In this document: positions 1,354 through 61,760 of the stretch, piece after piece
Numbering within the stretch: position 1 is the first letter of the stretch
Layout of the letters: the number at the start of each line of letters is the position of its first letter
Source of the DNA: Shigella phage SSG23
DNA length: 64,000 bases
Sequence record: PQ351811
Reading direction: 5' to 3' (one strand)
Position numbers and translations under genes: made by a program
The notes under the pieces: model-generated
Told to the model about the DNA's origin: nothing
The model's input: the letters and a program-made list of their open reading frames with translations, nothing else
Databases searched by the model: none

Positions 1354-4032
1354 ATGTATTTTCTGTCATGTGAGCGAGTAGGTGATAAGATCTACGAGCG
1401 TTATATTGATGATGCTGGACAAGAACAAGAGCGTTACGTTGAATATACGCCAACATTATTTCATCATGCCGCGCCTGGTATGGTTACTAATTATAAAGAT
1501 ATCTATGGCAAGCCTTGCATTGCTAAAAAATTCCCATCTATGAACGAGGCCAACAAATGGCGTAAAAAGATGGGGGAAATGGGGCAAGAGGCACTAGGGA
1601 TGGATGATTTTATCATCTCCTATCTGTCTGATACATATAAAGGTGAGATTCGATATGACCGAAATAAAATCCGTGTAGCATGGGTTGATATTGAGGTCAC
1701 TGCACCGGAATTTCCTAAACCAGAAGAGGCGAAATATCCTATCGATGCAATTACGCATTATGACTCCGTACATGATCGTTTCTTTGTATTTGATTTGAAA
1801 GGAAAAAACGGTGAAATCTGGGAAGCAAGAAAGTCTATTCTTCGACCTGATATTGTAGAGCGCGTTGTTTATAACGTCTATGATACAGAAGATGAATTGC
1901 TATTAGAATACATCCGATTCTTTGAGGAAAATCGACCAGTTGGCTTCACTGGCTGGAACACAGAAACATTCGATATCCCGTATATCATTAAGCGTATCAG
2001 TAATAAGTTTGGAAGTCGAACGGCAAACCGTTTAAGCCCGTGCGGTAAGATTAAATCCCGAATCTCACAGGATGATTTTGGCAACGAGCGTGAAGCATTT
2101 ACGATCATGGGGATCGAAAGCCTTGATTACATTGACCTGTACAAGAAATTTAGCTTTACGACTCAACCAACATATGCATTAGATTATGTTGCTGAATATG
2201 AGACAGGAATCGGTAAGGTTGATTATGATGGTCCGTTAAAGAAATTGCGTGATGACAACCATCAACTTTACATCGATTATAACATCGGCGACGTTGACCG
2301 TGTGCTGGCGATTGATAAAAAACGTGGTTTTATTGATCTGGTGTATAGCCTATGTTTCTATGCAAAAATTAAATTTAACCATGTTTATAATCCGATGAAA
2401 GTATGGGATGCTATTATCTTCGGATCTCTGAAAGCAGAGGGTAAAGTAGTACCGGAAAATAAGATACAGCCTAAGCAGACTTATCCCGGCGCATTTGTAA
2501 AAGAACCTGTGCCGAATGCTTACCGTTGGATGATGAGCTTTGACTTAACAAGTCTTTATCCATCTATTATTCGACAGGTTAATATTTCGCCGGAAACTAT
2601 CGCTGGGTCTTTTGATGCTGCACCGATGCACGAGTATATCAATAAAACTGCCCCGCGTCCGAGTGATGAGTATTCTTGCTCGCCTAACGGATGGATGTAT
2701 CGAAAAGATATTCATGGTATCGTACCGATTGAGATTAAAAAGGTATTCGACCAGCGTAAGCAGTACAAAAACATGATGTTGGCATGTGATCGCAATGCTG
2801 AACTCTGTAAAGCGATTCTACACGATGAAAATCATGTTTATGGGGGAACCATTAGCTATAGCGTTGAAGTTCGTCATGACTTCGATGAAGCGTTTAAATC
2901 TATGCTTTCGGAATTGAGCAAAGATACCCTAGAAAAATTGCTGGAAGAATGTAAAGACGAGTCGATCTTGTGCAACACAAACCAGCTTTCTCGAAAAGTT
3001 TTGATCAACTCCCTTTATGGTGCGTTGGGGAATCCTAAATTCCGCTTTTATGATCTCCGTAACGCTAGTGCGATCACATTGTTTGGTCAGCTTGCAATTC
3101 AGTGGATTGAGCGTAAGATTAACGAATACTTAAACGAGCTTTGCGGAACAACTGATTTTGCATATGTTCGTTATTGTGATACTGACTCCGTTTATGTGCT
3201 GGTTAACAATGTTGTTGATAAGGTTGGCGGGGAAGACCGTTTCGACGATACCGAAAAACTTGTTGACTTCCTTGATAATTTCGGTAAGCATAGAATGGAA
3301 CCGATTATCGACAAGGGATATCGCGAGTTATGCGAGTACATGAACAACTATGAGCACTTGATGTTTATGGACCGTGAGGCAATTGCCGGACCGCCTTTGA
3401 AGTCTGCGGGTATCGGTGGATTCTGGACTGGTAAAAAGCGTTATGCTCTTAATGTTTGGGATATGGAAGGAACGCGCTTTGCTGAACCTAAGCTAAAAAT
3501 CATGGGCTTGGAAACACAACGTAGTTCTACTCCTAAAGCATGTCAGAAATCACTGAAAGAATGTATTCGTCGTATGTTGCAGGAAGGTGAAGAGTCATTG
3601 CAGGAATACTACGGTATTTTTGAGCAAGAATTTAGAAAACTTGACTATCTTGAGGTTGCTGCGGTATCATCTGCAAACAACCTACAGAAATACAGCGATT
3701 CAAACGGGTATCCGATTAAGGGTTGTCCGTATGCGGTTAAGAGTGTATTGTGTTATAATCGTAATGCTCGAAAATTCGGACTAGATCCGATTCGTGAGGG
3801 CGAGAAAGTTATGATCGTACCGCTCAAAGATCGAAATCCGTTTGGAGAAATCTGTTTTGGTTGGTTGTCTGGTACTCGTATTCCGCCAGAAATTGAATCA
3901 GAAGTGTTAAAGTGGTTAGACTGGCCTTTGTTGTTTAATAAGACTTTCGTCAAACCACTGGAGAACATTACCACGGCTGCAAAGCTGCAATATGAAAAAG
4001 TTGCTTCTCTGACTGACCTGTTTGACATTTAA
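1354..4032 (+). CDS. 43: DNA polymerase gp43 (family B)
   Basis: 892 aa from RBS-proximal ATG; long collinear similarity to T4 gp43 (YGKPCIAKKFPSMNEA, DIEV exo motif, SLYPSII, NSLYGALGN, YCDTDS pol motifs). Confidence 0.95.
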   Translation: MYFLSCERVGDKIYERYIDDAGQEQERYVEYTPTLFHHAAPGMVTNYKDIYGKPCIAKKFPSMNEANKWRKKMGEMGQEALGMDDFIISYLSDTYKGEIRYDRNKIRVAWVDIEVTAPEFPKPEEAKYPIDAITHYDSVHDRFFVFDLKGKNGEIWEARKSILRPDIVERVVYNVYDTEDELLLEYIRFFEENRPVGFTGWNTETFDIPYIIKRISNKFGSRTANRLSPCGKIKSRISQDDFGNEREAFTIMGIESLDYIDLYKKFSFTTQPTYALDYVAEYETGIGKVDYDGPLKKLRDDNHQLYIDYNIGDVDRVLAIDKKRGFIDLVYSLCFYAKIKFNHVYNPMKVWDAIIFGSLKAEGKVVPENKIQPKQTYPGAFVKEPVPNAYRWMMSFDLTSLYPSIIRQVNISPETIAGSFDAAPMHEYINKTAPRPSDEYSCSPNGWMYRKDIHGIVPIEIKKVFDQRKQYKNMMLACDRNAELCKAILHDENHVYGGTISYSVEVRHDFDEAFKSMLSELSKDTLEKLLEECKDESILCNTNQLSRKVLINSLYGALGNPKFRFYDLRNASAITLFGQLAIQWIERKINEYLNELCGTTDFAYVRYCDTDSVYVLVNNVVDKVGGEDRFDDTEKLVDFLDNFGKHRMEPIIDKGYRELCEYMNNYEHLMFMDREAIAGPPLKSAGIGGFWTGKKRYALNVWDMEGTRFAEPKLKIMGLETQRSSTPKACQKSLKECIRRMLQEGEESLQEYYGIFEQEFRKLDYLEVAAVSSANNLQKYSDSNGYPIKGCPYAVKSVLCYNRNARKFGLDPIREGEKVMIVPLKDRNPFGEICFGWLSGTRIPPEIESEVLKWLDWPLLFNKTFVKPLENITTAAKLQYEKVASLTDLFDI

Positions 4033-4093
4033 GATAAAGTGTGTATAATGGCGGGTGTTGGGTGACGATACCCGCCAATGTGAGAAATATACT

Positions 4094-21027: not shown

Positions 21028-21351
21028 TTGATTATGATTGATATGAAGGTTACTTGCGAAAGTGCACATGTTGAAGTAGAACAGGTATTATATCCATCTC
21101 AACGCGTTACGGTGACTTTAGACGAGGTGGATCTGGCTAATAGTGTTACCGTTGAAGATATTGCTAACGAGTATGACCATGATGAACTGTTAGATGCAAT
21201 CCCTGAACATGTTGTCATTCAGCATGTAGTAAGCAATAATGATCCATCGACTTTCATTAAAGAATATGGCGCTGATGAAATGCTCGATGAAATTGGCGAA
21301 AAGATTGTTATTGCATGGCTTGAAAACAACGGTTATACTGTAGAACAATAA
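21028..21351 (+). CDS. hypothetical acidic protein
   Basis: 107-aa ORF. Confidence 0.4.
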   Translation: MIMIDMKVTCESAHVEVEQVLYPSQRVTVTLDEVDLANSVTVEDIANEYDHDELLDAIPEHVVIQHVVSNNDPSTFIKEYGADEMLDEIGEKIVIAWLENNGYTVEQ

Positions 21352-21358
21352 TCAACAT

Positions 21359-21382
21359 AGGCCGCTTTGCGCGGCCTTTCTT
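21359..21382 (+). terminator. rho-independent terminator
   Basis: Hairpin AGGCCGC-tttgc-GCGGCCT followed by TTCTT. Confidence 0.55.
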
Positions 21383-21396
21383 AGAGGGAATATATT

Positions 21397-21690
21397 ATGA
21401 CGGTCACGATTATTACCAAATACGACGACGAAAATGTGATTTACGGTGATGTGGTTGTTGTTCACGGTCGTAGCATGAAAGTTACTGGTAATTGTAAAGA
21501 TGGTGCTATTATTTGCGGTGAACTTGTGCGAACCGTCAATCCTATCACCGACGAACAAAAGCGAGACATTATCAGAAAATTTAAAGACAGCGGATATTGT
21601 AACGTTGTGGTGATTCAAGAAAAATTTGAAGTAGGACACCTATACACAAACCAGAAAACAATTCCAGTATCAATGATGAAAGGCGGTTAA
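21397..21690 (+). CDS. hypothetical protein
   Basis: 97-aa ORF. Confidence 0.4.
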   Translation: MTVTIITKYDDENVIYGDVVVVHGRSMKVTGNCKDGAIICGELVRTVNPITDEQKRDIIRKFKDSGYCNVVVIQEKFEVGHLYTNQKTIPVSMMKGG

Positions 21691-21692
21691 TA

Positions 21693-22055
21693 ATGCTAGG
21701 TCATTCTAAAATAGAAGATTGCTCATTCAGAGCAATGAAAGATGATTTTTCTGTCCTGTATGCGTCTATCCGAGAATTGTTTGTAGATTTTAAGCAATTC
21801 AGGGAATACAAAGGCGTTAAGATGCGGGAGTGGGTATTCTGGCCTTTCTATATCATTACTCTGTTTTCTATGGTATTTTGTTTTGTCGGGATCACTATCG
21901 CTAGCTTTGTCACTTGCGTTTTCCTGATTATCCGGTGTATCATGTTTGCTTTGATTGCTGCCCCGTTTATTGTTTCAATCCTTCCGTTAAAATGGCTATT
22001 GGATTGGGCTGATAAATCTGATAAAGTAAAGAATGTGATTTGTAAGCGTGTATGA
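21693..22055 (+). CDS. hypothetical membrane protein
   Basis: 120 aa with two long hydrophobic segments (FWPFYIITLFSMVFCFVGITIASFVTCVFLII...). Confidence 0.45.
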   Translation: MLGHSKIEDCSFRAMKDDFSVLYASIRELFVDFKQFREYKGVKMREWVFWPFYIITLFSMVFCFVGITIASFVTCVFLIIRCIMFALIAAPFIVSILPLKWLLDWADKSDKVKNVICKRV

Positions 22056-24030: not shown

Positions 24031-24059
24031 AAGCCGATCCTTGTGGTCGGCTTTTTTTT
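24031..24059 (+). terminator. rho-independent terminator (AAGCCGATCC-ttgtg-GTCGGCTT + T8)
   Basis: Strong hairpin and T-run; same element in inverted orientation at 34614-34636. Confidence 0.7.
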
Positions 24060-25643: not shown

Positions 25644-25672
25644 TTGACAGGGGATCGGTGATCCCCTATAAT
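25644..25672 (+). promoter_or_regulatory. PeSL-type promoter TTGACA-[GGGGATCggtGATCCCC]-TATAAT
   Basis: 17-bp palindromic spacer with two GATC sites forms the whole spacer between consensus -35 and -10. Confidence 0.6.
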
Positions 25673-28937: not shown

Positions 28938-28965
28938 GAAGGGGAGGCCGAAAGGCTTCCCCTTT
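28938..28965. terminator. bidirectional terminator hairpin between convergent plus-strand block and holin gene
   Basis: AAGGGGAGGCC-gaaa-GGCTTCCCCTT with A-run upstream and T-run downstream. Confidence 0.6.
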
Positions 28966-29940: not shown

Positions 29941-32883
29941 TTAATTCTTTTTAAGTTCCGCTAGTTCAGCTTTAACGGCTTTCAATTCTTCGCTCATTTC
30001 CTGAAACGCCTTAATTAAAAGAGCGTTGACAGCAGAGTTAGAAATTGTTAATATCTCTTCTGGTTTATCTGGATCGCCGACCTTAGAAGTTGTTACGGCT
30101 TCCGGCAATTCTTTTTCAAGATCCTGTGCAATAATACCAACTTCATGAGCAATGACAGTACGGTCAGTTAAAGATTTAACCTTATCGTAGGTGTATACAG
30201 TCAAGCGATTAACTTTATCGGTGGCATTCTCTTTATACTCTTCCTTGTTGATTTTAAGGCGAGCATCAGAACGAATATACACATCGTTAAACGAACCGTT
30301 ACGACCTACCGACATATCACCGGAGGCGTTAAAGTCAAAGTTGGCGTCATGAACGTTTAGGCGAGCTAAAGCATTGGTAATAGTACCACTAGGAACATGT
30401 ACACCCATTGCTGCGATATGATATTTACCCCAATGCGTCGCTTTCCATACGTTATGTGCCGAGTCAACGGATTGAGGACACCCAACCATAAGGCCAGCAG
30501 CACGGTCACGCCAGCTAGCCCAACTACCGCCAGCAACTTCACCACGAATCAGGCCATTACCGCCACCAGTTACAGTACCAGCTTCCAATTGGATCATTTT
30601 ATCTGCAAATTTCCACGTCTGGGCTTGTTTCTGACCACGGAAGCGAATAACACCAGCATCATCGGAATACATCAAACCTAGTTCTAAACCGTCTGGATCT
30701 CTAAACCAGATATGCTTATTACCAGTGCGACGAAATTCAATATCAGCACCGTTCAAAAGAATATTGCCGCCAGTGTGAATTGCTTGAGGCTTAACAGTAC
30801 CGTTGATGGCAAACTCAATTGCAGAAGTACCCGGACCGCCAGGCCGTTGAGTATACCAATGCCAACCACTTTCATCTACACACTCGAAAACCTGTTTACG
30901 GGAACCACTATTACCCCATGCACGAATGTTAAAGCCAGATGTGGCTGTACCCTTGCCCCACGTTAATTTCCCTTCTGTGGTTAAATCCCCTCGGAAGTGA
31001 GCAAGCAATCCACCATCAGCATTACGTTCGGTTGTAAAATGTGTTCCTTTCGTGTCTTCAAATTGTAAAACATTATATCGTCCAGCGTTACTATTCCCCC
31101 AATGGTTAATAGTGAAAGAATCCATCGACTGATTCCCACCCGCAGAGAAAGTAAGCAATCCTTTTTCTAAGAATACATTGTTGCTAAAACGAGCAGCACG
31201 GCTATCTCTTTCGAGAACTAATGCGCCTTCGTTACCATCACCACCTAAAGTAACTTTACCATTTGTCAAATCGTAGATGAATGGTCGGTTGCCGTTCCAT
31301 CCACCAAAACGGTCATTTTCTTCTGTGGAAAGAAGATAAATTTTCGTACCGTCATTACGCCAGAATGCACCGTAATTACCAAAGATCATGCGATATGCAT
31401 CTGAGTTAGCGGAATAGTATTGTCCGTTGGTATATACAATTTTTGTTTTTCCTGTAGTCAAATTTACTTGTCCACTACCTTCCAAATCAAATGAGTTAGC
31501 ACCAACATCATTACGCCACACAAAACCATCACTAGTACCATCCGCATGACCGATATAACCACTACGTTGGTTTTTACCATCACGACGATCCCACCACGCC
31601 ATATAGGCAGCTTGATCAGTCTGGCGATGTAAAGTCATCGCATTACCACTACCGTGCAATTCCATTTTACCAGTAATTACATATCCTTTATAGCTACCAG
31701 GTATAGCACTATTAGAATCAACTCTAAGAACTTCCGTAGAATCTGTAACACCAGTAGCAAGACGATATACAGCACCCTGAACGGTTTCATGCCAAACCAT
31801 TTCATTATAGTTACTACGGAATTTACGAATATATTTCCTACCAGTACCTCTATCATTACTCAAGTGAACAATATCATAGCTATTTTGTGTGTTGTCGTCA
31901 AAACTCAACACACCTCGTTTGTTTTCGGTGTTGAAAAGAGTTACAGCGCGACCGCCAATAACATTATCGCCAGCAGGACGTTCAGCAACAAAATCTGGAA
32001 CGTCATGCACTGTTAAATTAACATCAACACTTTTACCAAATTCAACAATAACGTTATCAGTATAACGCTGATATTTCACATAGATATCATAGTTATCGCC
32101 AGAAGTGTTAACAGCCAAAACATCAAATGATTTGTTTGTATTTCGGCGATATGCAATAACGTTAACACCTTTAGGGCGATTATTTCCACTACGAATAACA
32201 ATTTCTACAATATCAACTTGATCGTATGCAGTAACGTTATATCCGTTGCCGCCATGAATACGGAAAAATACGCTACGCCCATTTTGTGGAATCATTGCAG
32301 TTGCTAATTTAAAATAGCCTTCAACGGTATCAACAGGAACTGTAGCAAGTTTAACGTTCTTAACAAACATTCTATCTACTTCTTGTTTGCTATAAACGTT
32401 CAATTCTCCTGGAGTTGGCTTATCACCTTCGTGATACATGCGGTAACTGAATCTCTTGTTGCCATCCTTATCAAAACCATAGGTTTTAACCTGAGAGGAA
32501 CTAGAACCATATTGAAATTCAAACCCGCGACCGTGTGCTTTACCGTTAGAATGAGGAATGTTCAGAATCAAGTTAGACCAACCATCAGCATTATTCGTTC
32601 GAAACGCACCAAATTTGTCAAGGTCGCGAGCGGTTGAATCGTCCATATAGTTAGCGGTTTTACCTAAAATATAGTTGTCGCCGTCAACCTTACCAGCGAA
32701 TCTAACTTGTCGGTCATAAACCGGAGGACAACTTAAATTGATAATAGCACCGGAATCATTTTTAGTAAGAAGATATTGATCCGCAAGGTTGATTGCCAAT
32801 TCCCCCGGATTCATCGTACCAGCATCAGGTCGACGACCTTTAGTGCTAGTGCGTTTAAATTGGATTCTGCTTAAATCTGCCAT
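29941..32883 (-). CDS. 37: long tail fibre distal subunit gp37 with C-terminal intramolecular chaperone (peptidase S74-like) domain
   Basis: 980 aa; N-terminus MADLSRIQFKR...GELAINL matches T4 gp37; C-terminal about 110 aa has SDARLKIN and GIIAQDLEKELPEAV. Confidence 0.8.
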   Translation of the reverse strand: MADLSRIQFKRTSTKGRRPDAGTMNPGELAINLADQYLLTKNDSGAIINLSCPPVYDRQVRFAGKVDGDNYILGKTANYMDDSTARDLDKFGAFRTNNADGWSNLILNIPHSNGKAHGRGFEFQYGSSSSQVKTYGFDKDGNKRFSYRMYHEGDKPTPGELNVYSKQEVDRMFVKNVKLATVPVDTVEGYFKLATAMIPQNGRSVFFRIHGGNGYNVTAYDQVDIVEIVIRSGNNRPKGVNVIAYRRNTNKSFDVLAVNTSGDNYDIYVKYQRYTDNVIVEFGKSVDVNLTVHDVPDFVAERPAGDNVIGGRAVTLFNTENKRGVLSFDDNTQNSYDIVHLSNDRGTGRKYIRKFRSNYNEMVWHETVQGAVYRLATGVTDSTEVLRVDSNSAIPGSYKGYVITGKMELHGSGNAMTLHRQTDQAAYMAWWDRRDGKNQRSGYIGHADGTSDGFVWRNDVGANSFDLEGSGQVNLTTGKTKIVYTNGQYYSANSDAYRMIFGNYGAFWRNDGTKIYLLSTEENDRFGGWNGNRPFIYDLTNGKVTLGGDGNEGALVLERDSRAARFSNNVFLEKGLLTFSAGGNQSMDSFTINHWGNSNAGRYNVLQFEDTKGTHFTTERNADGGLLAHFRGDLTTEGKLTWGKGTATSGFNIRAWGNSGSRKQVFECVDESGWHWYTQRPGGPGTSAIEFAINGTVKPQAIHTGGNILLNGADIEFRRTGNKHIWFRDPDGLELGLMYSDDAGVIRFRGQKQAQTWKFADKMIQLEAGTVTGGGNGLIRGEVAGGSWASWRDRAAGLMVGCPQSVDSAHNVWKATHWGKYHIAAMGVHVPSGTITNALARLNVHDANFDFNASGDMSVGRNGSFNDVYIRSDARLKINKEEYKENATDKVNRLTVYTYDKVKSLTDRTVIAHEVGIIAQDLEKELPEAVTTSKVGDPDKPEEILTISNSAVNALLIKAFQEMSEELKAVKAELAELKKN

Positions 32884-32920: not shown

Positions 32921-32948
32921 TTTAGAAAAGCGGGGAGATAATCCCCGC
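32921..32948 (-). terminator. terminator-like hairpin between genes 36 and 37
   Basis: GCGGGGA-gataa-TCCCCGC; U-run on minus strand. Confidence 0.45.
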
Positions 32949-32953
32949 TAAAA

Positions 32954-34444
32954 TTAGAAAGTACCAAAATCAATCACCGCATTAAGTGGAACCGCGCCAA
33001 CCTCTGCGGGTGTCGGTTTATGGCCTTCGTGGTAAAGTTCATAGCGATCTGTGTCTTGAGTATTTCCACGCGCTTTAATGAAAACAGCTTTAGAATCGTG
33101 TGTAATACCCAATTTTTCGGTGGCTTTGATATCGCTGATACGGTGAATCATAGCCGTGCCATCGGCACTATTTAACCCAGCATAGTAGTTATCACCGTTA
33201 TATGCACCTCTAGCCGTTTTAACGCCATTTGCAGCCGGAACAGTTAACGGTCCTGTCATGGTGTCGCCAGTTACGTTAACATAGCGAATATCGGCTAATT
33301 TACGGTGATCTACATAGTTCCATGCAGTCCACGATTCATTAGAACAGGAACGCCAGCACATCGGATGGTCAATAGATTCAGGATAATACACCTGAACAAT
33401 TCGACGAGTACCGACCGCATCTTCTGGGCGGTATACCATCAAAACGCCGTTATAATAGCTATCAGACGGTTTATTAGTACCTGATCCAGCATTTTCCACA
33501 CGATAGATACCGCGATTAATAAGAGTGTTCCAATCAACGTTTCCAATGATGGTTGGATTTGCTACCATTGATTTTTTCTCAAAGTAGCTCAAACGAACCA
33601 ATTCATTAGGACCAGCAGGATCGTTTGTCGCCAACATTCTAGGCGCTTGCAAGTTACCTTCCATAATATCACCAGCACGTTTAACCTGTGCATCATTGGT
33701 GACATTACCTAGACCAACATCGGCTTTAGTTGGTTTATTGTTGGTGTGATAAAAACGACCTTCTTTGCCATTAACAAAAATGGTAGGCTCATCTTTACTT
33801 CGGAATACCAACGTATCAAGAACGTTACCATAATAGATTTTAGTGGCATCAAAATTAATTAAATCACGTCCCCTTGCAATTAATTTCGAATCAACCGATA
33901 ATTTAACTGTGACAGTGTTTAAATTATATGTTCCTGAGAGAGTATCACCGCGACGGGAGACTAAATCCAAATCATTATTCGTCGGTTTATTGACAGGGCT
34001 ATAGACGCGCTGACCTGTGTCTTTAATGGTTGTCCCTTCGATAGTCCCTTTAGACTTAAATTCGCCCGTTGTGGTGTCAATATAAGCCATGATAACACCA
34101 TCACGGGCATTAACAAAGCCGATTGACTTCCATGAATGCAAACCCCAGCTTACACCGTCAAAATTAGCGGCATCGCTCTGTCCTTTAAAAATACCGTTCT
34201 TTTTGGTTTCCCCAGCCGATGCACTACCTACGCTTAAACCTTCCTCAAAATGAACTTGCTTTTGAAATGTACCACCCTCGGATGCACTAACAGCATCAAA
34301 ATCGGTAGCCGAAGGTCTATCAAAAGCGGTATAGATTTTATGACCTTTGTAGAAAAGCTGATCTCCCGCTGGCTGGATCGTCAAGTTTCCTTGCGTCCAA
34401 ATGGGAGATCCGCCTACAGTAGATCCATGTTTCAAATCTGCCAT
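32954..34444 (-). CDS. 36: long tail fibre hinge subunit gp36 (enlarged, 496 aa)
   Basis: N-terminus MADLKHGSTVGGSPIWTQGNLTIQPAGD matches T4 gp36 (MADLKVGSTTGGSVIWHQGNF...); much longer than T4 gp36. Confidence 0.7.
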   Translation of the reverse strand: MADLKHGSTVGGSPIWTQGNLTIQPAGDQLFYKGHKIYTAFDRPSATDFDAVSASEGGTFQKQVHFEEGLSVGSASAGETKKNGIFKGQSDAANFDGVSWGLHSWKSIGFVNARDGVIMAYIDTTTGEFKSKGTIEGTTIKDTGQRVYSPVNKPTNNDLDLVSRRGDTLSGTYNLNTVTVKLSVDSKLIARGRDLINFDATKIYYGNVLDTLVFRSKDEPTIFVNGKEGRFYHTNNKPTKADVGLGNVTNDAQVKRAGDIMEGNLQAPRMLATNDPAGPNELVRLSYFEKKSMVANPTIIGNVDWNTLINRGIYRVENAGSGTNKPSDSYYNGVLMVYRPEDAVGTRRIVQVYYPESIDHPMCWRSCSNESWTAWNYVDHRKLADIRYVNVTGDTMTGPLTVPAANGVKTARGAYNGDNYYAGLNSADGTAMIHRISDIKATEKLGITHDSKAVFIKARGNTQDTDRYELYHEGHKPTPAEVGAVPLNAVIDFGTF

Positions 34445-34603: not shown

Positions 34604-34636
34604 TATAAAAATAAAGCCGACCACATGGATCGGCTT
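34604..34636 (-). terminator. rho-independent terminator after gene 35 (minus strand)
   Basis: Hairpin 34614-34636 nearly identical (1 mismatch in 23) to reverse complement of terminator at 24031-24053; U-run on minus strand. Confidence 0.6.
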
Positions 34637-35786: not shown

Positions 35787-35819
35787 AATAACCCCATAGG
35801 GGGCTTTCGCCCCCTTTAA

Positions 35820-43607: not shown

Positions 43608-43632
43608 AGCCTCCCTTCGGGGAGGCTTTTTT
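43608..43632 (+). terminator. rho-independent terminator after gene 32
   Basis: AGCCTCCC-ttcg-GGGAGGCT followed by T6. Confidence 0.7.
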
Positions 43633-43658
43633 ATTACCTAAAAATTTATGAAAAGGTG

Positions 43659-45108: not shown

Positions 45109-45377
45109 TGAAAATAACCATTATTCAATTATGGTCGGCTACCAGTGAAAACTACGCAGTAGCCGTAGATTATTACGGTTTACAATATCTCTATGATGAA
45201 GCGAGCGCATCATGGCTTCCGGTGCAAGAAAATAGCGATATCTCAAGACCTGCTACTGTATTCGATCCGGGCGTTGTCTTTATCAATATTGACGAGACAG
45301 TAGCAAAACTGCGTAAGAAAGCAATCAATAAGAAAAAGGTGATGTGGGATGAAAGAATATTTGAAACTATTGCGTGA
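45108..45377 (+). CDS. hypothetical protein
   Basis: 89-aa ORF; 3' end overlaps td start. Confidence 0.35.
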   Translation: MKITIIQLWSATSENYAVAVDYYGLQYLYDEASASWLPVQENSDISRPATVFDPGVVFINIDETVAKLRKKAINKKKVMWDERIFETIA

Positions 45378-46581
45378 TGTTCTTGATAATGGCTGGCCTC
45401 GTGAAGACCGAACGGGGGTAGGTACGCTCTCTAAATTCGGCGCAGAGATGCGAATTGACTTAAGCAAGGGTTTCCCCTTACTGACAACTAAAAAGATGGC
45501 TACAGCCTCTGTAATTGGCGAGTTGCTATGGTTTATGGAAGGGTCGCTGGACCGCCGTCGCTTACAGGAAATTACACGCGGTAAATTCGATGACGAAGCC
45601 TTTGATATTTGGCGCGGTAACTGTCTTGATATGAAAGAAAAGAATCCTTTGCGATTCAACGGCTATAATGTTGGCAATATGTATGGTATGGCGTGGCGAC
45701 GCAAGCCGATTCATCCACACGGTGAAATCAAAATTAAGCGCGTTAAGAGCAAATATACACATACATTTAAGCACCCGTGGGTAGAAGACTTTACGCCAAC
45801 CAACGACACAGAAGACCGTTTATGTGCTATCTGGCGTGGTATGCGTTATGAAGAGTTTGATTCTGAATATAATCAATTCTTAGTAGCAGACCACTGGAAG
45901 ACTCAATCCAATTTTGTTAATGATGCATACTGCTTGTGGGGATTCCAGGAATGGGTAGATGATGGTTATTTCGGTTATCTGCTTGATAGTGATTATCTGG
46001 GTGGGGATATGTTCGCACCGGATACCACAATCTTTGTTAATATGGACGTAGACACATCAAGCCCTAAAGACGATGAAGAATATATCTATCGCCCGAAGAT
46101 TTGGGAAGACCAGTTACAAAACGTGATTGAACAAATTAAAAATAATCCAACGGATCGCCGGATCATTATTGACTCATGGAACGTACAAGGAACACATAAT
46201 GCTGTATTAGGTGTATGTCATCCTTTCGTGCAATTCTACGTCAATGAAGGTAAACTGTCCTGTATGTGGTTTCAGCGAAGCGTAGACAGCTTTTTGGGCT
46301 TGCCCTTTAACGTCGCCAGCTATGCGCTGTTAACTCACATCATAGCGAAAATGTGCGACCTTGAGGTTGGCGAACTGATTTTCTCCGGCGGAGATACTCA
46401 CATTTACAAAAACCACTTTGACCAAGTTATGGAGCAATTAAACCGTGTTCCGTTTGATAAACCAACAATTGAGTTGCCGGAATTTAAATCTTTAGATGAG
46501 GTATTGACAAAAACTCCGAAAGACTTTAAAATTCACAACTATCAAAGCCACCCGGCAATCACCGCTCAAATGGCAGTATAA
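45349..46581 (+). CDS. td: thymidylate synthase (ThyA family) with large internal insertion
   Basis: 410 aa; both ends collinear with E. coli ThyA/T4 Td (DRTGVGTLS, FPLLTTKK, catalytic VCHPFVQFY, LGLPFNVASYALL, GGDTHIY); about 125 aa inserted after YGMAWRR. Confidence 0.85.
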   Translation: MKEYLKLLRDVLDNGWPREDRTGVGTLSKFGAEMRIDLSKGFPLLTTKKMATASVIGELLWFMEGSLDRRRLQEITRGKFDDEAFDIWRGNCLDMKEKNPLRFNGYNVGNMYGMAWRRKPIHPHGEIKIKRVKSKYTHTFKHPWVEDFTPTNDTEDRLCAIWRGMRYEEFDSEYNQFLVADHWKTQSNFVNDAYCLWGFQEWVDDGYFGYLLDSDYLGGDMFAPDTTIFVNMDVDTSSPKDDEEYIYRPKIWEDQLQNVIEQIKNNPTDRRIIIDSWNVQGTHNAVLGVCHPFVQFYVNEGKLSCMWFQRSVDSFLGLPFNVASYALLTHIIAKMCDLEVGELIFSGGDTHIYKNHFDQVMEQLNRVPFDKPTIELPEFKSLDEVLTKTPKDFKIHNYQSHPAITAQMAV

Positions 46582-46587
46582 ACAAAT

Positions 46588-46605
46588 GCGGGGAGAAATC
46601 CCCGC
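46588..46605 (+). repeat. GC-rich stem-loop GCGGGGA-gaaa-TCCCCGC
   Basis: Same stem-loop inside promoter at 49189-49206; related copies 32930, 53189, 57904. Confidence 0.5.
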
Positions 46606-46617
46606 AAGGAGTATCAA

Positions 46618-46920
46618 ATGAAAATATGCCGCGTTGTAAACAAGTACAATAGCGATTTTGATGTTAATATTCAGCGTGGTACTATGTGGGGAAATCCATA
46701 CACCGCCAAAGAATACGGACGAGAGAAAGCTATTGCATTATACAAAGAGTGGTTGTATAATAAGATTCGAAATGGTGAGATAACACGAGCGCATTTAGAA
46801 GTATTAAGACATATGCGCTTAGGTTGTACTTGCTACCCTAAGAAATGCCACGGTGAAGTATTGGCGGATCTCGTTAATAGAGTTTTCGGCGATACTCCAG
46901 AAAATACGCTTGATATATGA
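46618..46920 (+). CDS. DUF4326-family protein with gp33-like C-terminal tail
   Basis: 100 aa; GNPYT and LGCTCYPKKCHGEVL fit DUF4326 pattern as recalled; C-terminus DTPENTLDI closely matches gp33 C-terminus DEPTNTLDI. Confidence 0.5.
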   Translation: MKICRVVNKYNSDFDVNIQRGTMWGNPYTAKEYGREKAIALYKEWLYNKIRNGEITRAHLEVLRHMRLGCTCYPKKCHGEVLADLVNRVFGDTPENTLDI

Positions 46921-49183: not shown

Positions 49184-49212
49184 TTGACGCGGGGAGAAAT
49201 CCCCGCTATAAT
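49184..49212 (+). promoter_or_regulatory. PeSL-type promoter TTGACG-[GCGGGGAgaaaTCCCCGC]-TATAAT
   Basis: Palindromic 17-bp spacer 49189-49206. Confidence 0.6.
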
Positions 49213-49243: not shown

Positions 49244-49411
49244 ATGACCAAATTAAAATGTGTTGCTGTAGATTTTGAGCTAGCTGATAGCTTTGTTGTC
49301 GGTGATGAATATGATGCTCGACATGATGGGACTTGCTACTACGTTAAGGATGAATACGGCGTAGAATGGGCTATTCTTCCTGATGATAAATGTTTTGAGG
49401 TTGTCGGATAA
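49244..49411 (+). CDS. hypothetical protein
   Basis: 55-aa ORF from RBS-proximal ATG. Confidence 0.3.
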   Translation: MTKLKCVAVDFELADSFVVGDEYDARHDGTCYYVKDEYGVEWAILPDDKCFEVVG

Positions 49412-49751: not shown

Positions 49752-49820
49752 TAGTGAGGTGAATTAATCCTTCTTCTGGATACCTGATAAATAATGGTAT
49801 ACAGAAAAGAGGATTTATTC

Positions 49821-50468
49821 ATGAACTTACAAAAACTACACGACGCAATCATAGAAAAAGCGAAGATAAGAGGAACCGTTGAAGGATATAAGGAAACACA
49901 TCATATTTTACCGCGATCTATGGGTGGCGGTGATGAAGTCGATAACCTGATTGATTTGACAGCCAAAGAACATTTTGTGATTCATCACCTGCTAGCAAAA
50001 ATTCATGGTGGACCTATGGCGCAAGCATTTGGTATGATGTGTTTGGCAAAAAATGCTAAGACCAATAAAAGAGATTATGTTGTTTCGTCTAGGGTATATG
50101 AACAAGCTAGGGTACTGATATCTGAACAAAGAAAGGGTAAGCCTATGAAAGAAGAAACGCGAAGAAAGATTAGCGAATCTTCGAAAGGTGTATTGAAATC
50201 AGAAGAGACAAAAGCTAAAATGCGTAAACCAAAAACAAAGGAGCACGCGTTAAACATTTCAAAAGCTAGAATGGGAAGTAAAAATCCTATGTTTGGGAAA
50301 CCATCGCCAACTAAAGGAATACCACATAGCGAGGAAATGAGAAAGCTGATTGCACAAAGGACAAAGGAAGCAACAATGGCAGATCCTTGTCCGCATTGCG
50401 GTAAAATTACCAATAAAGGCAATGCTCTACGATGGCACTTTGATAACTGCAAAATGAGGAATATGTGA
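49821..50468 (+). CDS. HNH homing endonuclease (MobE-like; HNH + NUMOD3 repeats + C-terminal zinc finger)
   Basis: ETHHILPRSMGGGDEVDNLIDLTAKEHFVIH; repeated basic K-rich motifs; CPHCGK; inserted between nrdA and nrdB like T4 mobE. Confidence 0.75.
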   Translation: MNLQKLHDAIIEKAKIRGTVEGYKETHHILPRSMGGGDEVDNLIDLTAKEHFVIHHLLAKIHGGPMAQAFGMMCLAKNAKTNKRDYVVSSRVYEQARVLISEQRKGKPMKEETRRKISESSKGVLKSEETKAKMRKPKTKEHALNISKARMGSKNPMFGKPSPTKGIPHSEEMRKLIAQRTKEATMADPCPHCGKITNKGNALRWHFDNCKMRNM

Positions 50469-51635: not shown

Positions 51636-52108
51636 TATATTTTGTCGATTTAGATTTTACGATCACAGATCCAACGCATCGACTAGCTAAGATGCCAACC
51701 GAAAATCTTGATAAAGTCGAGTCATGGATCGAATATAACAAGGCATGTGGGGGAGATTCCCCCATTTACGATGTAATTCGTGTTATCAATGCTCTTTCTG
51801 ACAACGGTCATTTGATTTACATCCTCACCGGACGAAGTTCACATGCTTACATAGAAACGGTGGAATGGCTGATCGCTAATGATGTGTGTTTCGATAAAAT
51901 CTTTATGAGAGGTCGCAATGATTCCCGTAAAGACTATCACATCAAATTAGAGGTAATTAAATCCTTTGATAAAGATGAAGTTGTCGGAGTCTTTGAGGAT
52001 AACCCGGAAGTGATTAAAGTTCTCAGAGAAAACGGCTATCGTGTCTTTGACGTAGGAAATCACAAAGACAAGACACGAGCGGATATTGCAAATCACGGTC
52101 ATGATTAA
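51632..52108 (+). CDS. HAD-superfamily phosphatase-like protein
   Basis: 158 aa; N-terminal DLDFT (DxDxT) motif and later GRSS... region. Confidence 0.45.
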   Translation: MIYFVDLDFTITDPTHRLAKMPTENLDKVESWIEYNKACGGDSPIYDVIRVINALSDNGHLIYILTGRSSHAYIETVEWLIANDVCFDKIFMRGRNDSRKDYHIKLEVIKSFDKDEVVGVFEDNPEVIKVLRENGYRVFDVGNHKDKTRADIANHGHD

Positions 52109-52118
52109 TGTTTGTTCA

Positions 52119-52145
52119 AAGTCGCCCATAGTGGCGACTTTTTTG
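52119..52145 (+). terminator. rho-independent terminator
   Basis: AAGTCGCC-catagt-GGCGACTT followed by T-run. Confidence 0.7.
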
Positions 52146-52155
52146 TTATTGGGTG

Positions 52156-52184
52156 TTGACAATCGGATCTTGCCATAGCATAAT
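52156..52184 (+). promoter_or_regulatory. sigma70-like early promoter TTGACA-17-CATAAT
   Basis: Leader acatcgaaacggaggaacat before ATG 52209. Confidence 0.55.
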
Positions 52185-52208: not shown

Positions 52209-52427
52209 ATGGAAACAGAAGAACAAGTCATTGCATATTTTCATCGTAAAAAGATGAAACTTAGAATCGAAAAACAGTACATCAATCACTATATTGACCG
52301 AGTCCACTTAACAAGTACACCTTACCTATTCCGGTTGATAAACCCTCGAAAACGGTGGGATAAGTTGGATAGAAACACAAAAATAATTGATAAACTCACC
52401 CAATGGTGGAATGAATACAACAAGTAA
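52209..52427 (+). CDS. hypothetical protein
   Basis: 72-aa ORF; stop lies in the A-run of the following PeSL. Confidence 0.4.
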   Translation: METEEQVIAYFHRKKMKLRIEKQYINHYIDRVHLTSTPYLFRLINPRKRWDKLDRNTKIIDKLTQWWNEYNK

Positions 52428-52478
52428 AAAAGTAGTTGACACTGAATAACGGGGGTAGTAATATACCCCCATCGAAAC
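52427..52478 (+). repeat. PeSL copy 1: 52-bp promoter/stem-loop cassette (TTGACA-17-TAATAT, palindrome GGGGGTA...TACCCCC)
   Basis: 52 bp identical to 52703-52754. Confidence 0.7.
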
Positions 52479-52492
52479 AAAGGAGAATCAAA

Positions 52493-52711
52493 ATGAAATT
52501 TATCTGCACCGACTCTATCAGCAAACACTTTGTAGTAGGCGAAGTATACGAATCTACTACCATTCGTCAGCGTGACCTGATGGGTCGCCTTTACAATCAG
52601 CCAGTATTCATTATTGGTGAAGAATTGTTCTACATTGAAAACCGTCCGTGGGTTGCTTTCAATAAACGAGGACGCAAGGTAGCAAAATTCGAACTTGTCA
52701 TTAAAAAGTAG
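52493..52711 (+). CDS. hypothetical protein flanked by identical PeSLs
   Basis: 72-aa ORF from RBS-proximal ATG; stop TAG inside second PeSL copy. Confidence 0.45.
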   Translation: MKFICTDSISKHFVVGEVYESTTIRQRDLMGRLYNQPVFIIGEELFYIENRPWVAFNKRGRKVAKFELVIKK

Positions 52712-52754
52712 TTGACACTGAATAACGGGGGTAGTAATATACCCCCATCGAAAC
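52703..52754 (+). repeat. PeSL copy 2: 52-bp promoter/stem-loop cassette
   Basis: 52-bp exact direct repeat of 52427-52478. Confidence 0.7.
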
Positions 52755-52781: not shown

Positions 52782-53180
52782 ATGATTAAATTTCAAACTC
52801 GCAAAGACGTTCTGGACTTCGTTAAAGTTTTCGGTTACGCTGCATTGCAACATGCAATGGACAAAATGACCATCACCCCAGATCAGACTATGCTGATCCG
52901 TATGGTTAAAGCAACCGCCTACAAAAACGACATTACCCTCTCAGAAATCAACGACGGTAATACTGTCCGCGAGGTGATTGTTTCTTTCGAATCACCGAAA
53001 ATTGGCGGTTTTCATACCACGATGTTAGGCGAAATCACTGTCACTGTATACGGGCAAGGTGGCGGAGTGTTCACCGTAAAAGAAGCGATGGAAAACGGGA
53101 CACTGAACAAAGAAAAACTGGAATTTGTCCTGAAAATCATCAAGGAGCGTAACGAAGCTCGCGATATTCTGGAAAGTTAA
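52782..53180 (+). CDS. hypothetical protein
   Basis: 132-aa ORF. Confidence 0.4.
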   Translation: MIKFQTRKDVLDFVKVFGYAALQHAMDKMTITPDQTMLIRMVKATAYKNDITLSEINDGNTVREVIVSFESPKIGGFHTTMLGEITVTVYGQGGGVFTVKEAMENGTLNKEKLEFVLKIIKERNEARDILES

Positions 53181-53230
53181 TAAGGTGGGCGGGAGAAATC
53201 CCGCCTTTGTTGTGACGTGAGGAAAGGATA

Positions 53231-54797: not shown

Positions 54798-54839
54798 TAA
54801 TAAGCGGGGCTTGCCCCGCCTATTGTCGTTGGGGGTAAT

Positions 54840-57221: not shown

Positions 57222-57528
57222 ACAAATTGATAATATCGTACTTCGTGAAGCACTCAAGAAAATGTTTTCGGTCGGTACTCACTCTTTGCAGTTTACTAAG
57301 AAAGATGGTACTGTCCGAGATATGATCGCCACGCGAGATCCGGCACTGATGCCATTTGAAACATACGAAAAGTGGTTAGTGCCTAATGTTGATAAACCGC
57401 GTAAAGAATCAGAAACATCTTTGCCAGTATATGAAATTGCAGTTGAAGGTTTTCGTAGCTTCGGGCTTGATAGTCTGATTCATGTAAACGGCTTAACGCC
57501 AGCGCAGATCATCGAAATTTATAAATAA
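57214..57528 (+). CDS. hypothetical protein
   Basis: 104-aa ORF overlapping cd stop. Confidence 0.4.
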   Translation: MTEQIDNIVLREALKKMFSVGTHSLQFTKKDGTVRDMIATRDPALMPFETYEKWLVPNVDKPRKESETSLPVYEIAVEGFRSFGLDSLIHVNGLTPAQIIEIYK

Positions 57529-57893: not shown

Positions 57894-57975
57894 TGATTTT
57901 AAACGGCGGGAATTATCCCGCCTATATTTTGGCTATATGATTTTGTAAGTTATTGATTATTAAGGAATTTTTATT

Positions 57976-58609: not shown

Positions 58610-60092
58610 TATCATTAATCAGCTTGCAGCGACCGACAAAACATCGCTGAAAGAAAAGATCCTGAAAGAATCTGCAAGCAATGAAACGCTGAAAGAATGC
58701 TTTTATCTGGCATATTGCAAACAGGTTACGTTTGGCGTAAAGAAATACGATAAACCGTCGCGTTATTCATCTGTGTTGTCTTTATCCGGTGCATTACAGG
58801 TCTTTAAAAATAAACTTGCCACGCGTCAAGTAACTGGTAATGCCGCATTACAGCTAGTTACCGATACTCTGACTTGCTTGTCAGAAGATGATGCTAAAGT
58901 TGCAATGATGGTCCTGAATCGTGATCTGGAATGCGGTTGTTCCGCTACCACAGCAAACAAGGTATGGAAGAAGCTGATTCCTCAGCAGCCGTGCCATCTT
59001 GCATCGTCATGTTCTGATAAGACTATTGCCAATATCAAATATCCGGCGTATGCACAACTTAAAAGCGATGGCGCTCGTGGTATGGCTGATATTGACGGGG
59101 AAACATTAGCAATCTATACCCGTTCAGGTAATACCTATCAGGGGCTGGATGATTTGTTTGCTGTTTTAGAGCGTCTACGAGGCCGTGGAGTTGTTTTAGA
59201 TGGTGAGTTGGTATATATGCCTACCCTTTCGCAAACACCAGCGCAGAACTTCGTTGATAGCGTTTATGATGGTACTCTGTCATGGATATTTGAAGAAGAG
59301 GAAATGCCATTAACGCCAGTAGCGGAAGCAGTGAAAGAATCAGTTGTTGCAGATCGTCAGACCGGAAATGGTATCCTTAACAAATCACTGAAAGGAACTA
59401 TTCCGAAAGAAGAAGCCCAATGTATTGTATACACCGTCTGGGATGTTATCGACCGTGATGTGTATTACGGAAACGAGAAAGCAACGAAGCAGTATAAAGA
59501 TCGATTTGAGGAACTAAAACAGATTGTTGAAGAACTTAACGATCCTCGTGTTCAGATAATCGAAAATACTGTAGTTAACAATATCGATGAGGCTCGCGAA
59601 GTATATCATCGCTATGTAAACATGGGATTAGAAGGTATTATCCTTAAAAATTTACATGGTGTATTTGAAGATCGTCGCAGTAAAGATCAGGTTAAATTTA
59701 AAGAAGTGATTGACTTCGACGCGGAAATTGTTGATGTATATCCGCATAGTAAAGATCCTAACAAGGTAGGCGGTTTTACTGTCCGTAGTGCGTGCGGACG
59801 AATGACGACTAACACCGGATCGGGATTGACCGACACCACAACCGAAAAAGATGATGATGGTATTGAACGTGTAATTCCGTTCGATCGTCGAAATGAACTC
59901 GACCGAGAAATGTTATGGGCTGACCGTCATAACCTGATTGGAAAAGTCATTGAGATGACATGCAACGGGTATATCCGCAGCAAATCACGTAAAGAAGATG
60001 AACCGGAGTTCTCTTTATTTCTCCCGATCATCAAACGTATTCGCTACGACAAGACCACTGCAAATACAGTAAAAGAGGTATTCGATGTGTGA
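58596..60092 (+). CDS. 30: ATP-dependent DNA ligase gp30
   Basis: NRDLECG, ANKVW, YPAYAQLKSDGARG (ligase KxDG), VLDGELVY, GIANKSLKGTI, EGIILKN, KFKEV match T4 gp30. Confidence 0.9.
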   Translation: MSILNIINQLAATDKTSLKEKILKESASNETLKECFYLAYCKQVTFGVKKYDKPSRYSSVLSLSGALQVFKNKLATRQVTGNAALQLVTDTLTCLSEDDAKVAMMVLNRDLECGCSATTANKVWKKLIPQQPCHLASSCSDKTIANIKYPAYAQLKSDGARGMADIDGETLAIYTRSGNTYQGLDDLFAVLERLRGRGVVLDGELVYMPTLSQTPAQNFVDSVYDGTLSWIFEEEEMPLTPVAEAVKESVVADRQTGNGILNKSLKGTIPKEEAQCIVYTVWDVIDRDVYYGNEKATKQYKDRFEELKQIVEELNDPRVQIIENTVVNNIDEAREVYHRYVNMGLEGIILKNLHGVFEDRRSKDQVKFKEVIDFDAEIVDVYPHSKDPNKVGGFTVRSACGRMTTNTGSGLTDTTTEKDDDGIERVIPFDRRNELDREMLWADRHNLIGKVIEMTCNGYIRSKSRKEDEPEFSLFLPIIKRIRYDKTTANTVKEVFDV

Positions 60093-60561
60093 TAATGAAG
60101 GGGCGAAAGCCCCTAAACCTAAAAAATTGTCAAAGAAAGAGCAACGCCAGATCCTGAAAATGAAATACGGTGGACGTTGTGCCTATTGTGGCGAGGAACT
60201 AGGGGATCGCTGGCACGCAGACCACATCAAACCAGTATTGCGACGCTCAAAAGTAGTCTATGATGAAAGTGGACGAATTGCCCGTAATGATGATGGATCG
60301 TGGAAGTATAAGGTTGTAGGAATGCATAAACCGGAGCACGATATACTTGATAACATGAATCCGGCTTGTGTGCAATGCAATCTTTACAAAAGCTGTATGG
60401 GCTTAGAATACTGGCGTAAGTGTATACGCGAGAACTTCCAGAAGTACATTCAACGTAACATGGGATTACGTGCGGCTAAACGCTTTGGCTTACTTTCAAT
60501 CCACGATCAGCCAGTAGAATTTTATTTCGAAAAGTACGAGCGCGAGCATCAAGAAAAATAA
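60085..60561 (+). CDS. HNH endonuclease (free-standing)
   Basis: 158 aa; CAYCGEEL...HADHIKPV...NMNPACVQCNLYK classical HNH motif. Confidence 0.7.
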   Translation: MCDNEGAKAPKPKKLSKKEQRQILKMKYGGRCAYCGEELGDRWHADHIKPVLRRSKVVYDESGRIARNDDGSWKYKVVGMHKPEHDILDNMNPACVQCNLYKSCMGLEYWRKCIRENFQKYIQRNMGLRAAKRFGLLSIHDQPVEFYFEKYEREHQEK

Positions 60562-60574
60562 TTCAAAAAAGTTG

Positions 60575-60603
60575 TTGACAGGGGATCGCCGATCCCCTAT
60601 ACT
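60575..60603 (+). promoter_or_regulatory. PeSL-type promoter TTGACA-[GGGGATCgccGATCCCC]-TATACT
   Basis: Palindromic 17-bp spacer with two GATC sites. Confidence 0.6.
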
Positions 60604-61731: not shown

Positions 61732-61760
61732 TTGACAGGGGATCACAGATCCCCTATAAT
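61732..61760 (+). promoter_or_regulatory. PeSL-type promoter TTGACA-[GGGGATCacaGATCCCC]-TATAAT
   Basis: Palindromic spacer 61738-61754 with two GATC sites. Confidence 0.6.

Follow-up and report, generated by a model that had tools for sequence, protein, structure and literature searches.

GC-rich intergenic stem-loops of Shigella phage SSG23 and their relation to the PeSLs of RB49-type phages

Several genes of Shigella phage SSG23 are followed by short GC-rich stem-loops that look alike, among them the one at positions 46588-46605 between td and the next open reading frame (ORF), which raises the question of whether such stem-loops are members of one family and whether they end transcripts, stabilise or process RNA, or serve as sites of recombination. 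The window analysed here, a stretch of 64,000 nucleotides from sequence record PQ351811, is identical in sequence comparison to positions 76162-140161 of Shigella phage SFHK24 (PQ351812.1), and the phage is a T4-like Krischvirus of the RB49/phi1/JSE group. Nine relatives were compared with it, namely RB49, Makalu_002, JSE, LF73P4, phiS, pEJ01, AV108 and two IMG/VR contigs. The genes td (stop end at 46581), nrdA (ending at 49175), rnlA (54797) and gene 31, encoding the co-chaperonin (57893), are annotated where an initial annotation of the stretch had placed them, and the two genes for tail fibres, 32954-34444 and 29941-32883, are encoded by the minus strand.

The stem-loops are intergenic modules of a type already known and described from RB49-type phages. 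Our reading, which we hold to be probable, is that these modules end or insulate transcripts, that one of them acts as a promoter-early stem-loop (PeSL), and that their repeats serve as crossover points for gene cassettes. The element has been known for this genus since 2010, the new isolate confirms it, and the current understanding is unchanged. New are small additions: a foreign methyltransferase gene at the nrdA PeSL of a related phage, two forms of the td junction, a loop-based indication of selection on RNA and the apparent convergence of an 18-mer. The modules are of use for annotating promoters, terminators and cassette boundaries in Krischvirus genomes, where some tiny annotated ORFs look spurious, and for the engineering of therapeutic phages, for which PeSLs are natural insertion points.

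Stem-loops at gene junctions

In a mechanical scan, the window yielded 23 perfect hairpins rich in GC, compared with 2.7 +/- 1.8 in dinucleotide shuffles, and 16 of the 23 fall within the 4.6% of the DNA that is intergenic; the feature thus exceeds chance by far and is real. By a thermodynamic criterion, a hairpin with dG <= -9 kcal/mol is present in 33 of the 45 intergenic regions. The six hairpins flagged by the initial annotation make up part of a larger set, some 30 stable hairpins between genes that fall into several sequence classes and also include an intrinsic terminator after gene 32 (43608-43635, plus strand) with a UUCG tetraloop and a U-run, used as an internal control, and a hairpin between tail-fibre genes (35798-35815, minus strand) with the loop GAAA on the transcribed minus strand. 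The whole window, searched on both strands, gave no matches to Rfam 15 at the gathering score.

The six had been described as a near-identical family located at gene junctions. All six are real GC hairpins and all lie 5-12 nt downstream of a stop codon, but the exact arms GCGGGGA-N-TCCCCGC occur at three sites only (32930-32948, 46588-46605 and 49189-49206; three matches in the window versus 0.00 in 100 dinucleotide shuffles), the hairpins at 53188-53205, 54804-54819 and 57905-57922 being related and of other sequence. Four sets of coordinates were correct as first given, and those of the 53188-53205 and 57905-57922 hairpins had each been one base off. Fold z-scores range from -3.2 to -4.5 for five of the six, with only -0.42 for the hairpin at the rnlA site, which lies amid a G-rich context.

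The hairpin after td (46588-46605, plus strand, GCGGGGA-GAAA-TCCCCGC) lies 6 nt after the td stop and has a minimum free energy of -16.1 kcal/mol (z = -4.45); directly 3' of it, with no U-tract, comes the AAGGAG ribosome-binding site of an nrdA.1-like ORF. It is one identical 18-mer, GCGGGGAGAAATCCCCGC, with the hairpin at 49189-49206, whose region folds at -21.5 kcal/mol (z = -3.8). The third exact copy, at 32930-32948 between the two tail-fibre genes, has the loop GATAA on the plus strand; the transcribed strand here is the minus strand, on which GCGGGGA-UUAUC-UCCCCGC is followed by UUUUCUAAAU (z = -3.49). The sequence of this hairpin is unchanged in RB49. The element after ORF 52782-53180 (53188-53213, plus strand) consists of the hairpin GGCGGGA-GAAA-TCCCGCC (53188-53205) with a UUUGUUGU tail and is identical in nine of nine relatives. 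After rnlA, the plus-strand hairpin at 54804-54819, GCGGGG-CUUG-CCCCGC, has a 6-bp stem and a weak U tail; all nine relatives compared have a CUAGUU loop at this site, and the five of them with flanks read have CUUUUGUCGUU as the tail. The hairpin after gene 31 (57905-57922, plus strand) is GGCGGGA-AUUA-UCCCGCC with the tail UAUAUUUUGG, and the seven relatives covering the site have an AAUAA loop. The stems of these target hairpins are invariant among the relatives compared and thus provide no covariation evidence.

The flagged copies have unlike flanks and only the hairpin in common, unlike the PeSL repeat families D1 and D2 described below, which extend over 55-73 nt. A recognisable promoter is absent at 46588, 53188, 54804 and 32930 (minus strand), and the best that inspection by eye gives at 57905 is a weak TTAAAC-18-TATATT.

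PeSLs and the shared 18-mer

PeSLs were described for RB49 and phi1, phages of the same genus as the window phage, by Arbiol 2010 (PMC2839356). About 50 PeSLs are present in RB49 and as many in phi1. Each joins a consensus sigma70 promoter to an AT-rich stretch upstream of it and to a stem-loop, generally of the form GGGG...CCCC, and in the commonest subclass the stem-loop is situated between the -35 and -10 hexamers (PMC2839356). The idea was extended to other T4-like phages by Comeau et al. 2014 (PMC4122927).

The initial annotation had proposed that one of the six serves as a promoter spacer, and this is the case: the hairpin 49189-49206 fills the 17 bp of TTGACG-17-TATAAT at 49184-49212 on the plus strand, 8 nt after the nrdA stop, with 11 of 12 hexamer positions matching the sigma70-type consensus and a spacer within the 16-18 bp sought. 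The order is nrdA stop (49175), AAATAAGTG, PeSL, GAGGA and the ATG of a small ORF at 49244, and the PeSL is identical in nine of nine relatives compared. It has the stem-loop between -35 and -10, as in the commonest RB49/phi1 subclass. Judged at the sequence level, the 49189 copy carries every feature by which Arbiol 2010 recognises a PeSL, and it is the only one of the six to fall under that definition, the other five being classed as stand-alone stem-loops of the same design because they have no promoter. The window elements thus share with the RB49/phi1 PeSLs the AT-rich stretch, the sigma70 hexamers, the GGGG...CCCC stem-loop between or over them, the Shine-Dalgarno sequence and the start codon, as well as an association with cassette indels, and they differ in that five of the six flagged hairpins are without a promoter. 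The main text of Arbiol 2010 (PMC2839356) makes no mention of the nrdA or td junctions.

Further PeSLs are found on the plus strand of the window. Those at 25644-25672 (TTGACA-17-TATAAT with a hairpin spacer) and 60575-60603 belong to the AGGGGATC class, and the one at 61732-61760, with the same 17-bp hairpin spacer between TTGAC and TATAAT and a AGGGGATC stem, is the orthologue of RB49 PeSL206/205, reported to be a very strong promoter that drives about 13,000 Miller units from lacZ (PMC2839356). In the PeSL at 52436-52470, a member of the 55-nt repeat family D1, the loop of the hairpin holds the -10 hexamer, TAATAT; a second copy, at 52712-52746, is 98% identical over 55 nt and likewise has the -10 hexamer in the loop. 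The repeats of families D1 and D2, of 55 and 73 nt, take in the promoter and hairpin together with the 5' leader and the ribosome-binding site, and their members are clearly copies of one another. The 72-aa ORFs 52209-52427 and 52493-52711 each lie behind a PeSL, 98% identical over 55 nt; a tandem duplication of these ORFs was considered and rejected, the proteins being without similarity and only the upstream PeSLs alike.

The identical 18-mer at 46588 and 49189 is a different matter. It occurs exactly in at least 120 unrelated viral contigs of IMG/VR with very different sizes and GC contents and so does not define a family; as a family marker it was discarded. Among the matches listed, it lies mostly just past a stop codon, 37 copies are then followed by a T-run, and one copy only is a Krischvirus PeSL. 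From these sequences the 18-mer is a recurrent, thermodynamically favourable design and not a sign of common descent.

Whether the six hairpins as a group are alike by convergence on one thermodynamically good design, and are not copies, we regard as an even question. Past the hairpin, the flanks of 46588, 49189, 32930 and 53188 share nothing, and the spread of the 18-mer over so many unrelated phages points the same way. A hairpin usually follows nrdA in about 60 diverse T4-like contigs as well, similar in design and with unrelated stems (loops UUCG in five cases, UACG in two and GAAA in two), and no similar GC hairpin was found at the junctions examined beside the nrdA.1 homologues of three other T4-like phages, a Yersinia phage, a Klebsiella phage and the T4-like wV7. 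Against convergence, the identical hairpins of this genome exceed a rough estimate of about 0.06 identical pairs among some 33 freely drawn hairpins, the true PeSL families are clearly mutual copies, and short-patch gene conversion between 46588 and 49189 is possible. For the identity of these two copies, either convergence or short-patch conversion may be the explanation.

Transcript ends, RNA stability and termination

The two strands of a perfect hairpin read alike save for the loop and any wobble pairs. Eleven of the intergenic hairpins have a loop of four bases, which on the transcribed strand is GNRA, UNCG or CUUG in nine (GAAA six times, and UACG, UUCG and CUUG), compared with 0 of 11 on the opposite strand, and the bias is about 7 to 0 when probable copies are counted once and a hairpin between convergent genes is omitted. 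The 35798 hairpin fits this pattern, with GAAA on the minus strand only, the strand of its genes. Such stable tetraloops on the sense strand suggest selection on RNA; the sections of Arbiol 2010 (PMC2839356) consulted do not note a tetraloop bias.

Stem changes among the relatives add to this. They run through G.U on the sense strand: the stem at 43608 passes from C-G via U.G to U-A, and the GGGRGTA class alternates between G-C and A-U with a G.U intermediate. In addition, 63517 has two compensatory pairs. A formal analysis of the GGGRGTA class gives a modest result, with one covarying pair, a level reached by 14 of 500 shuffles. An apparent energy advantage of the sense strand (first test p = 0.0015) was dropped: that test was biased because the hairpins had been picked on the sense strand, and when the best hairpin of each strand was compared, free of this bias, in every intergenic region, the result was 18 for sense versus 13 for antisense (p = 0.19). 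With the energy asymmetry not significant, what carries the RNA-level argument is the identity of the loops, together with a few G.U intermediates. Taken together, these sequence patterns favour selection at the transcript level for a termination or 3'-end function; recombination would then follow as a by-product of repeated sequence.

The function of the copies lacking a U-tract could be mainly post-transcriptional, in that they would block 3'-5' exonucleases or cap 5' ends after cleavage and so set mRNA half-lives without terminating. We hold this to be possible, though only tentatively as their main role. It agrees with the skew of GNRA, UNCG and CUUG tetraloops to the sense strand, with the missing U-tract at 46588, where the hairpin abuts the ribosome-binding site of the next gene, and with the occurrence of two different stems at one position after td (see below), but the sense versus antisense energy test was not significant, our literature search found no transcript 3'-end or processing data for any Krischvirus, and the reporter result of Arbiol 2010 (PMC2839356) does not tell termination apart from RNA decay. 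The related idea that RegB cuts within the stem also speaks little for it. The target sought was an unpaired GGAG, usually A-rich, of the form GG*AGRAYARAA, and in the GGAG of GCGGGGAGAAAU the GGA lies within the folded stem; since GGAG is shielded from RegB by secondary structure (review PMC3014915), cleavage there is unlikely under the published substrate rules. The ribosome-binding site GGAGUAUCAAA after 46605, which lies outside the hairpin, partly fits the RegB consensus.

Precedents for such a role come from T4 itself: Tuerk et al. (1988, PNAS) reportedly connected its intergenic C(UUCG)G hairpins with termination and with the stability of mRNA. That work is said to concern T4 and RNA thermodynamics, with no embedding in a promoter spacer and no role in recombination described. 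The T4 C(UUCG)G and GNRA hairpins share with those of the window the short GC stems, the UUCG, UACG or GAAA caps and the position right after T4-type genes. On balance, an RNA stabiliser or processing barrier fits all the observations and is a plausible co-explanation for the U-less copies. It is far less credible that the U-less GNRA-capped hairpins (46588, 54804, 35798) and the spacer hairpins are recognised by a phage factor, such as a protein that binds the GGGG...CCCC stem-loop, whether extruded or transcribed, and couples the shut-off of early promoters to cassette recombination, or that they give rise to discrete processed mRNAs specific to RB49-type phages.

U-tracts were scored with our own implementation of a d'Aubenton-Carafa-style d-score, on which the control terminators at 43608 and 24031 reach +38 and +29. 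In the first 8 nt past the six hairpins there are 5, 1, 3, 6, 4 and 6 U. The hairpins at 53188 (+18) and 32930 (minus strand, +12) are terminator-like, 57905 is borderline (-5.6, or -6 when rounded), and 49189 (-15), 54804 (-25) and 46588 (-42) are not terminator-like; 53188 and 57905 are in addition matched by a terminator scan, and the 53188 element in particular looks like an intrinsic terminator. The initial annotation had stated that most of the stem-loops lack a strong U-run and may act in other ways rather than as terminators. The former was about half right, with 46588, 49189 and 54804 negative, 53188 and 32930 (minus strand) positive and 57905 in between. The latter does not stand, given two terminator-like copies of six and a borderline third, and given that a stem-loop without a U-run, that of RB49 PeSL211/210 (AGGGGATCACGTATCCCCT as read in the RB49 sequence), cut downstream lacZ about as much as rrnB T1 (PMC2839356). 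A U-tract is therefore not required for a strong polar effect, and termination and RNA decay were not separated in this reporter.

It is nevertheless unlikely that Rho-independent termination is the whole role of all six. The position of all six 5-12 nt after stop codons, the terminator-scan matches at 53188 and 57905, the positive d-scores at 32930 (minus strand) and 53188 and the published reporter, in which a PeSL stem-loop had termination-like activity (PMC2839356), would fit such a reading, and a GC-rich hairpin past a stop codon is what these elements share with intrinsic terminators, 53188, 32930 (minus strand) and 43608 each having a U-rich tail and a positive d-score as well. The U-tract by which the class is defined is, however, absent at 46588, 49189 and 54804, the tail AAGGAGUA after 46588 holding 1 U in 8 nt; the 49189 copy doubles as a promoter spacer, and PeSL copies demonstrably border inserted cassettes. 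For the U-less copies the purely terminating role thus fails on sequence grounds.

We return to the reading of insulating modules, for which promoter and terminator activity have been reported in the sister PeSLs of RB49/phi1 and termination or stabilisation is what we infer at these six hairpins. Each module is a short GC stem, 6-8 bp long and in most cases topped by an unusually stable tetraloop, a few bases past a stop codon. Once the upstream gene is transcribed, the stem would fold in that RNA and stop or attenuate RNA polymerase, most clearly at the sites with a U-rich tail (53188, probably 57905, and 32930 on the minus strand). It may in addition shield the 3' end so created from exonucleases, and in both cases adjacent transcription units would be insulated from each other. 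At 49189, about 30 bp would suffice to end the transcription of nrdA and restart it for the next small ORF.

Cassettes and recombination

In Arbiol 2010 (PMC2839356), PeSLs were proposed as crossover points for the shuffling of cassettes, and mini-circles were detected. In the modules of the window, the homologous recombination machinery of the phage may likewise use the repeated PeSLs as crossovers, by which cassettes would be gained, lost and replaced; because PeSLs are nearly identical genome-wide, they can act as crossover points for homologous recombination.

The clearest case bears out, for the promoter-embedded copy, the suggestion of the initial annotation that the stem-loops may be recombination sites. 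In LF73P4, an 893-bp cytosine-methyltransferase cassette is located at the 49189 PeSL between exact 32-bp direct repeats, CTGTTGACGCGGGGAGAAATCCCCGCTATAAT, that include the hairpin. The cassette DNA is at least 98.7% identical in three more Krischviruses (its position was read for KMB43 alone among the three, where it is near nrdB), and its next relatives are in a Cronobacter phage and several siphoviruses, which are non-T4 phages. By these matches, the LF73P4 methyltransferase is a foreign gene captured at a PeSL.

Several other cassette indels that distinguish the relatives have a breakpoint no more than about 40 nt away from a PeSL or hairpin. At 52727, two PeSLs enclose an additional ORF in RB49, Makalu_002 and LF73P4; RB49 and JSE are longer by about 760 bp immediately upstream of the 60575 PeSL; and a replacement in phiS that begins just past this PeSL is bounded within 12-24 nt of the hairpins 60580 and 61737. 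Indels without a hairpin also occur, namely a homing endonuclease at 49794-50468 and an insertion of phiS at 57518. Proximity is weak evidence, because most breakpoints are intergenic and most intergenic regions have a hairpin; the direct repeats flanking a cassette are the stronger signal.

The td junction shows a further polymorphism. The nrdA.1-like ORF that follows (46618-46920, plus strand, 100 aa; Pfam DUF4326, E = 6.5e-23) is homologous to T4 NrdA.1, and in wV7 NrdA.1 lies between td and nrdA. Only six phage records have at least 99% identity to the ORF, it is absent from RB49, JSE, phiS, pEJ01 and AV108, and the left boundary of this presence/absence polymorphism is the td hairpin. SFHK24, Makalu_002 and LF73P4 have the ORF together with GCGGGGA-GAAA-TCCCCGC, the loop in Makalu_002 being GGAA and still GNRA, and seven other genomes have no ORF and GGGGGC-GAAA-GCCCCC at the same distance from the td stop. 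Structure, position and the GNRA loop are thus kept at this junction while the sequence of the stem differs. The hairpin, ribosome-binding site and ORF were also considered as one travelling cassette and this was rejected, as contig L107 has the same hairpin and AAGGAG followed by an ORF unrelated to the nrdA.1-like gene, and as the junctions examined beside nrdA.1 homologues in the Yersinia, Klebsiella and wV7 phages lack a similar GC hairpin.

That the GGGG...CCCC hairpins are DNA sites for a dedicated recombination protein specific to their sequence or structure, in the manner of a mobile element or attC, and not passive patches of homology, is very improbable: a cassette bordered by exact PeSL repeats, unrelated ORFs each behind a near-identical PeSL, and the PeSL mini-circles and the speculation on such a protein in Arbiol 2010 (PMC2839356) would agree with it, but that paper has no integrase or recombinase identified in RB49/phi1 and puts the homology required for T4-type recombination below 50 bp, with repeats here of 32-73 bp, the non-PeSL copies have 18 bp alone in common, at least 120 unrelated viral contigs share the 18-mer, for the most part past stop codons and a third with a T-run, and the tetraloop bias to the sense strand is unexpected for a DNA site.

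The comparison with integron attC sites and lambdoid 'moron' cassettes, which is Arbiol's own (PMC2839356), holds insofar as these too are single-gene cassettes with their own expression signals at repeated sites. Unlike attC, PeSL sites are promoters and terminators and not folded single-strand recombination substrates, no integrase is known for them, and their recombination appears to be homology-dependent. If the 46588 hairpin recombined with its identical copy at 49189, the predicted junction would be ACAAATGCGGGGAGAAATCCCCGCTATAAT, and a circle of about 2.6 kb with nrdA.1 and nrdA would result.

Terminator-like hairpins and overlapping annotations

In addition to the stem-loops associated with promoters, the window carries a near-identical pair of terminator hairpins, AAGCCGATCC[T/A]TGTGGTCGGCTT, located on opposite strands and both followed by a T-rich tail. 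The first lies in the early region (24031-24053, plus strand) and has seven T's 3' of position 24053, and the second is found between tail-fibre genes (34614-34636, minus strand) with the tail TATTTTTATA. These two represent a further hairpin sub-family of the window. A very stable hairpin, GAAGGGGAGGCC-GAAA-GGCTTCCCCTTT (28938-28965; -22 kcal/mol), is placed between convergent genes, where the end of a plus-strand ORF faces the minus-strand holin gene, and is probably a two-way terminator.

Two hairpins overlap annotated ORFs. The ORF annotated as an HNH endonuclease (60085-60561) contains the hairpin AGGGGC-GAAA-GCCCCT (60099-60114), which lies directly 3' of the DNA ligase (gene 30) stop at 60092. 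This hairpin may serve as the terminator of the ligase gene, in which case the start of the HNH ORF has been annotated across it. The annotated 30-aa ORF at 52086-52178 is overlain by both a terminator-like hairpin with a T-run (52118-52141) and a promoter, TTGACA-17-CATAAT (52156-52184), and is probably spurious.

Stems of the promoter-early stem-loops

Promoter-early stem-loops (PeSLs) combine a sigma70-type promoter with a GC hairpin. Promoter-plus-hairpin elements are found on both sides of the DNA polymerase gene 43 (1284-1321 and 4022-4082), an arrangement that the window has in common with RB49/phi1, for which the same bracketing was noted by Arbiol 2010 (PMC2839356). In three PeSLs, the stems AGGGGATC...GATCCCCT (25649-25667, 60580-60598 and 61737-61755) place two GATC (Dam) sites within the promoter spacer. 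These sites are not conserved in the JSE and LF73P4 variants, and their presence in the spacers is thus probably incidental.

The hairpin itself is lost in a few PeSL copies of relatives, orthologous to those at 52451 and 63517 of the window, with GGTGGTA...TACCCAC (-3.5 kcal/mol) in the copy of pEJ01 and only -0.2 kcal/mol in that of LF73P4. Therefore, either the stem-loop is dispensable at some sites, or these copies represent paralogous matches or sequencing errors.

Variable genes and the annotation of td

A homing endonuclease gene (49794-50468) resides between small ORFs and nrdB. It is present in SFHK24 and is annotated at the equivalent position in JSE, phiS and AV108, and it is absent from RB49, Makalu_002 and LF73P4; in the comparison with relatives, its breakpoints were not at hairpins. 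In LF73P4, the cytosine-methyltransferase ORF inserted at the PeSL following nrdA (21092-22010 of that genome) needs a frameshift to be read through in the assembly; either the ORF is a pseudogene or the frame disruption is a sequencing error. The gene is annotated as intact in KMB43, Delraymugoa and Aragogtheria.

T4 Td is approximately 286 aa long. The td gene of the window (45349-46581) is annotated at 410 aa, as it is in RB49, and its N-terminal extension overlaps the preceding ORF.
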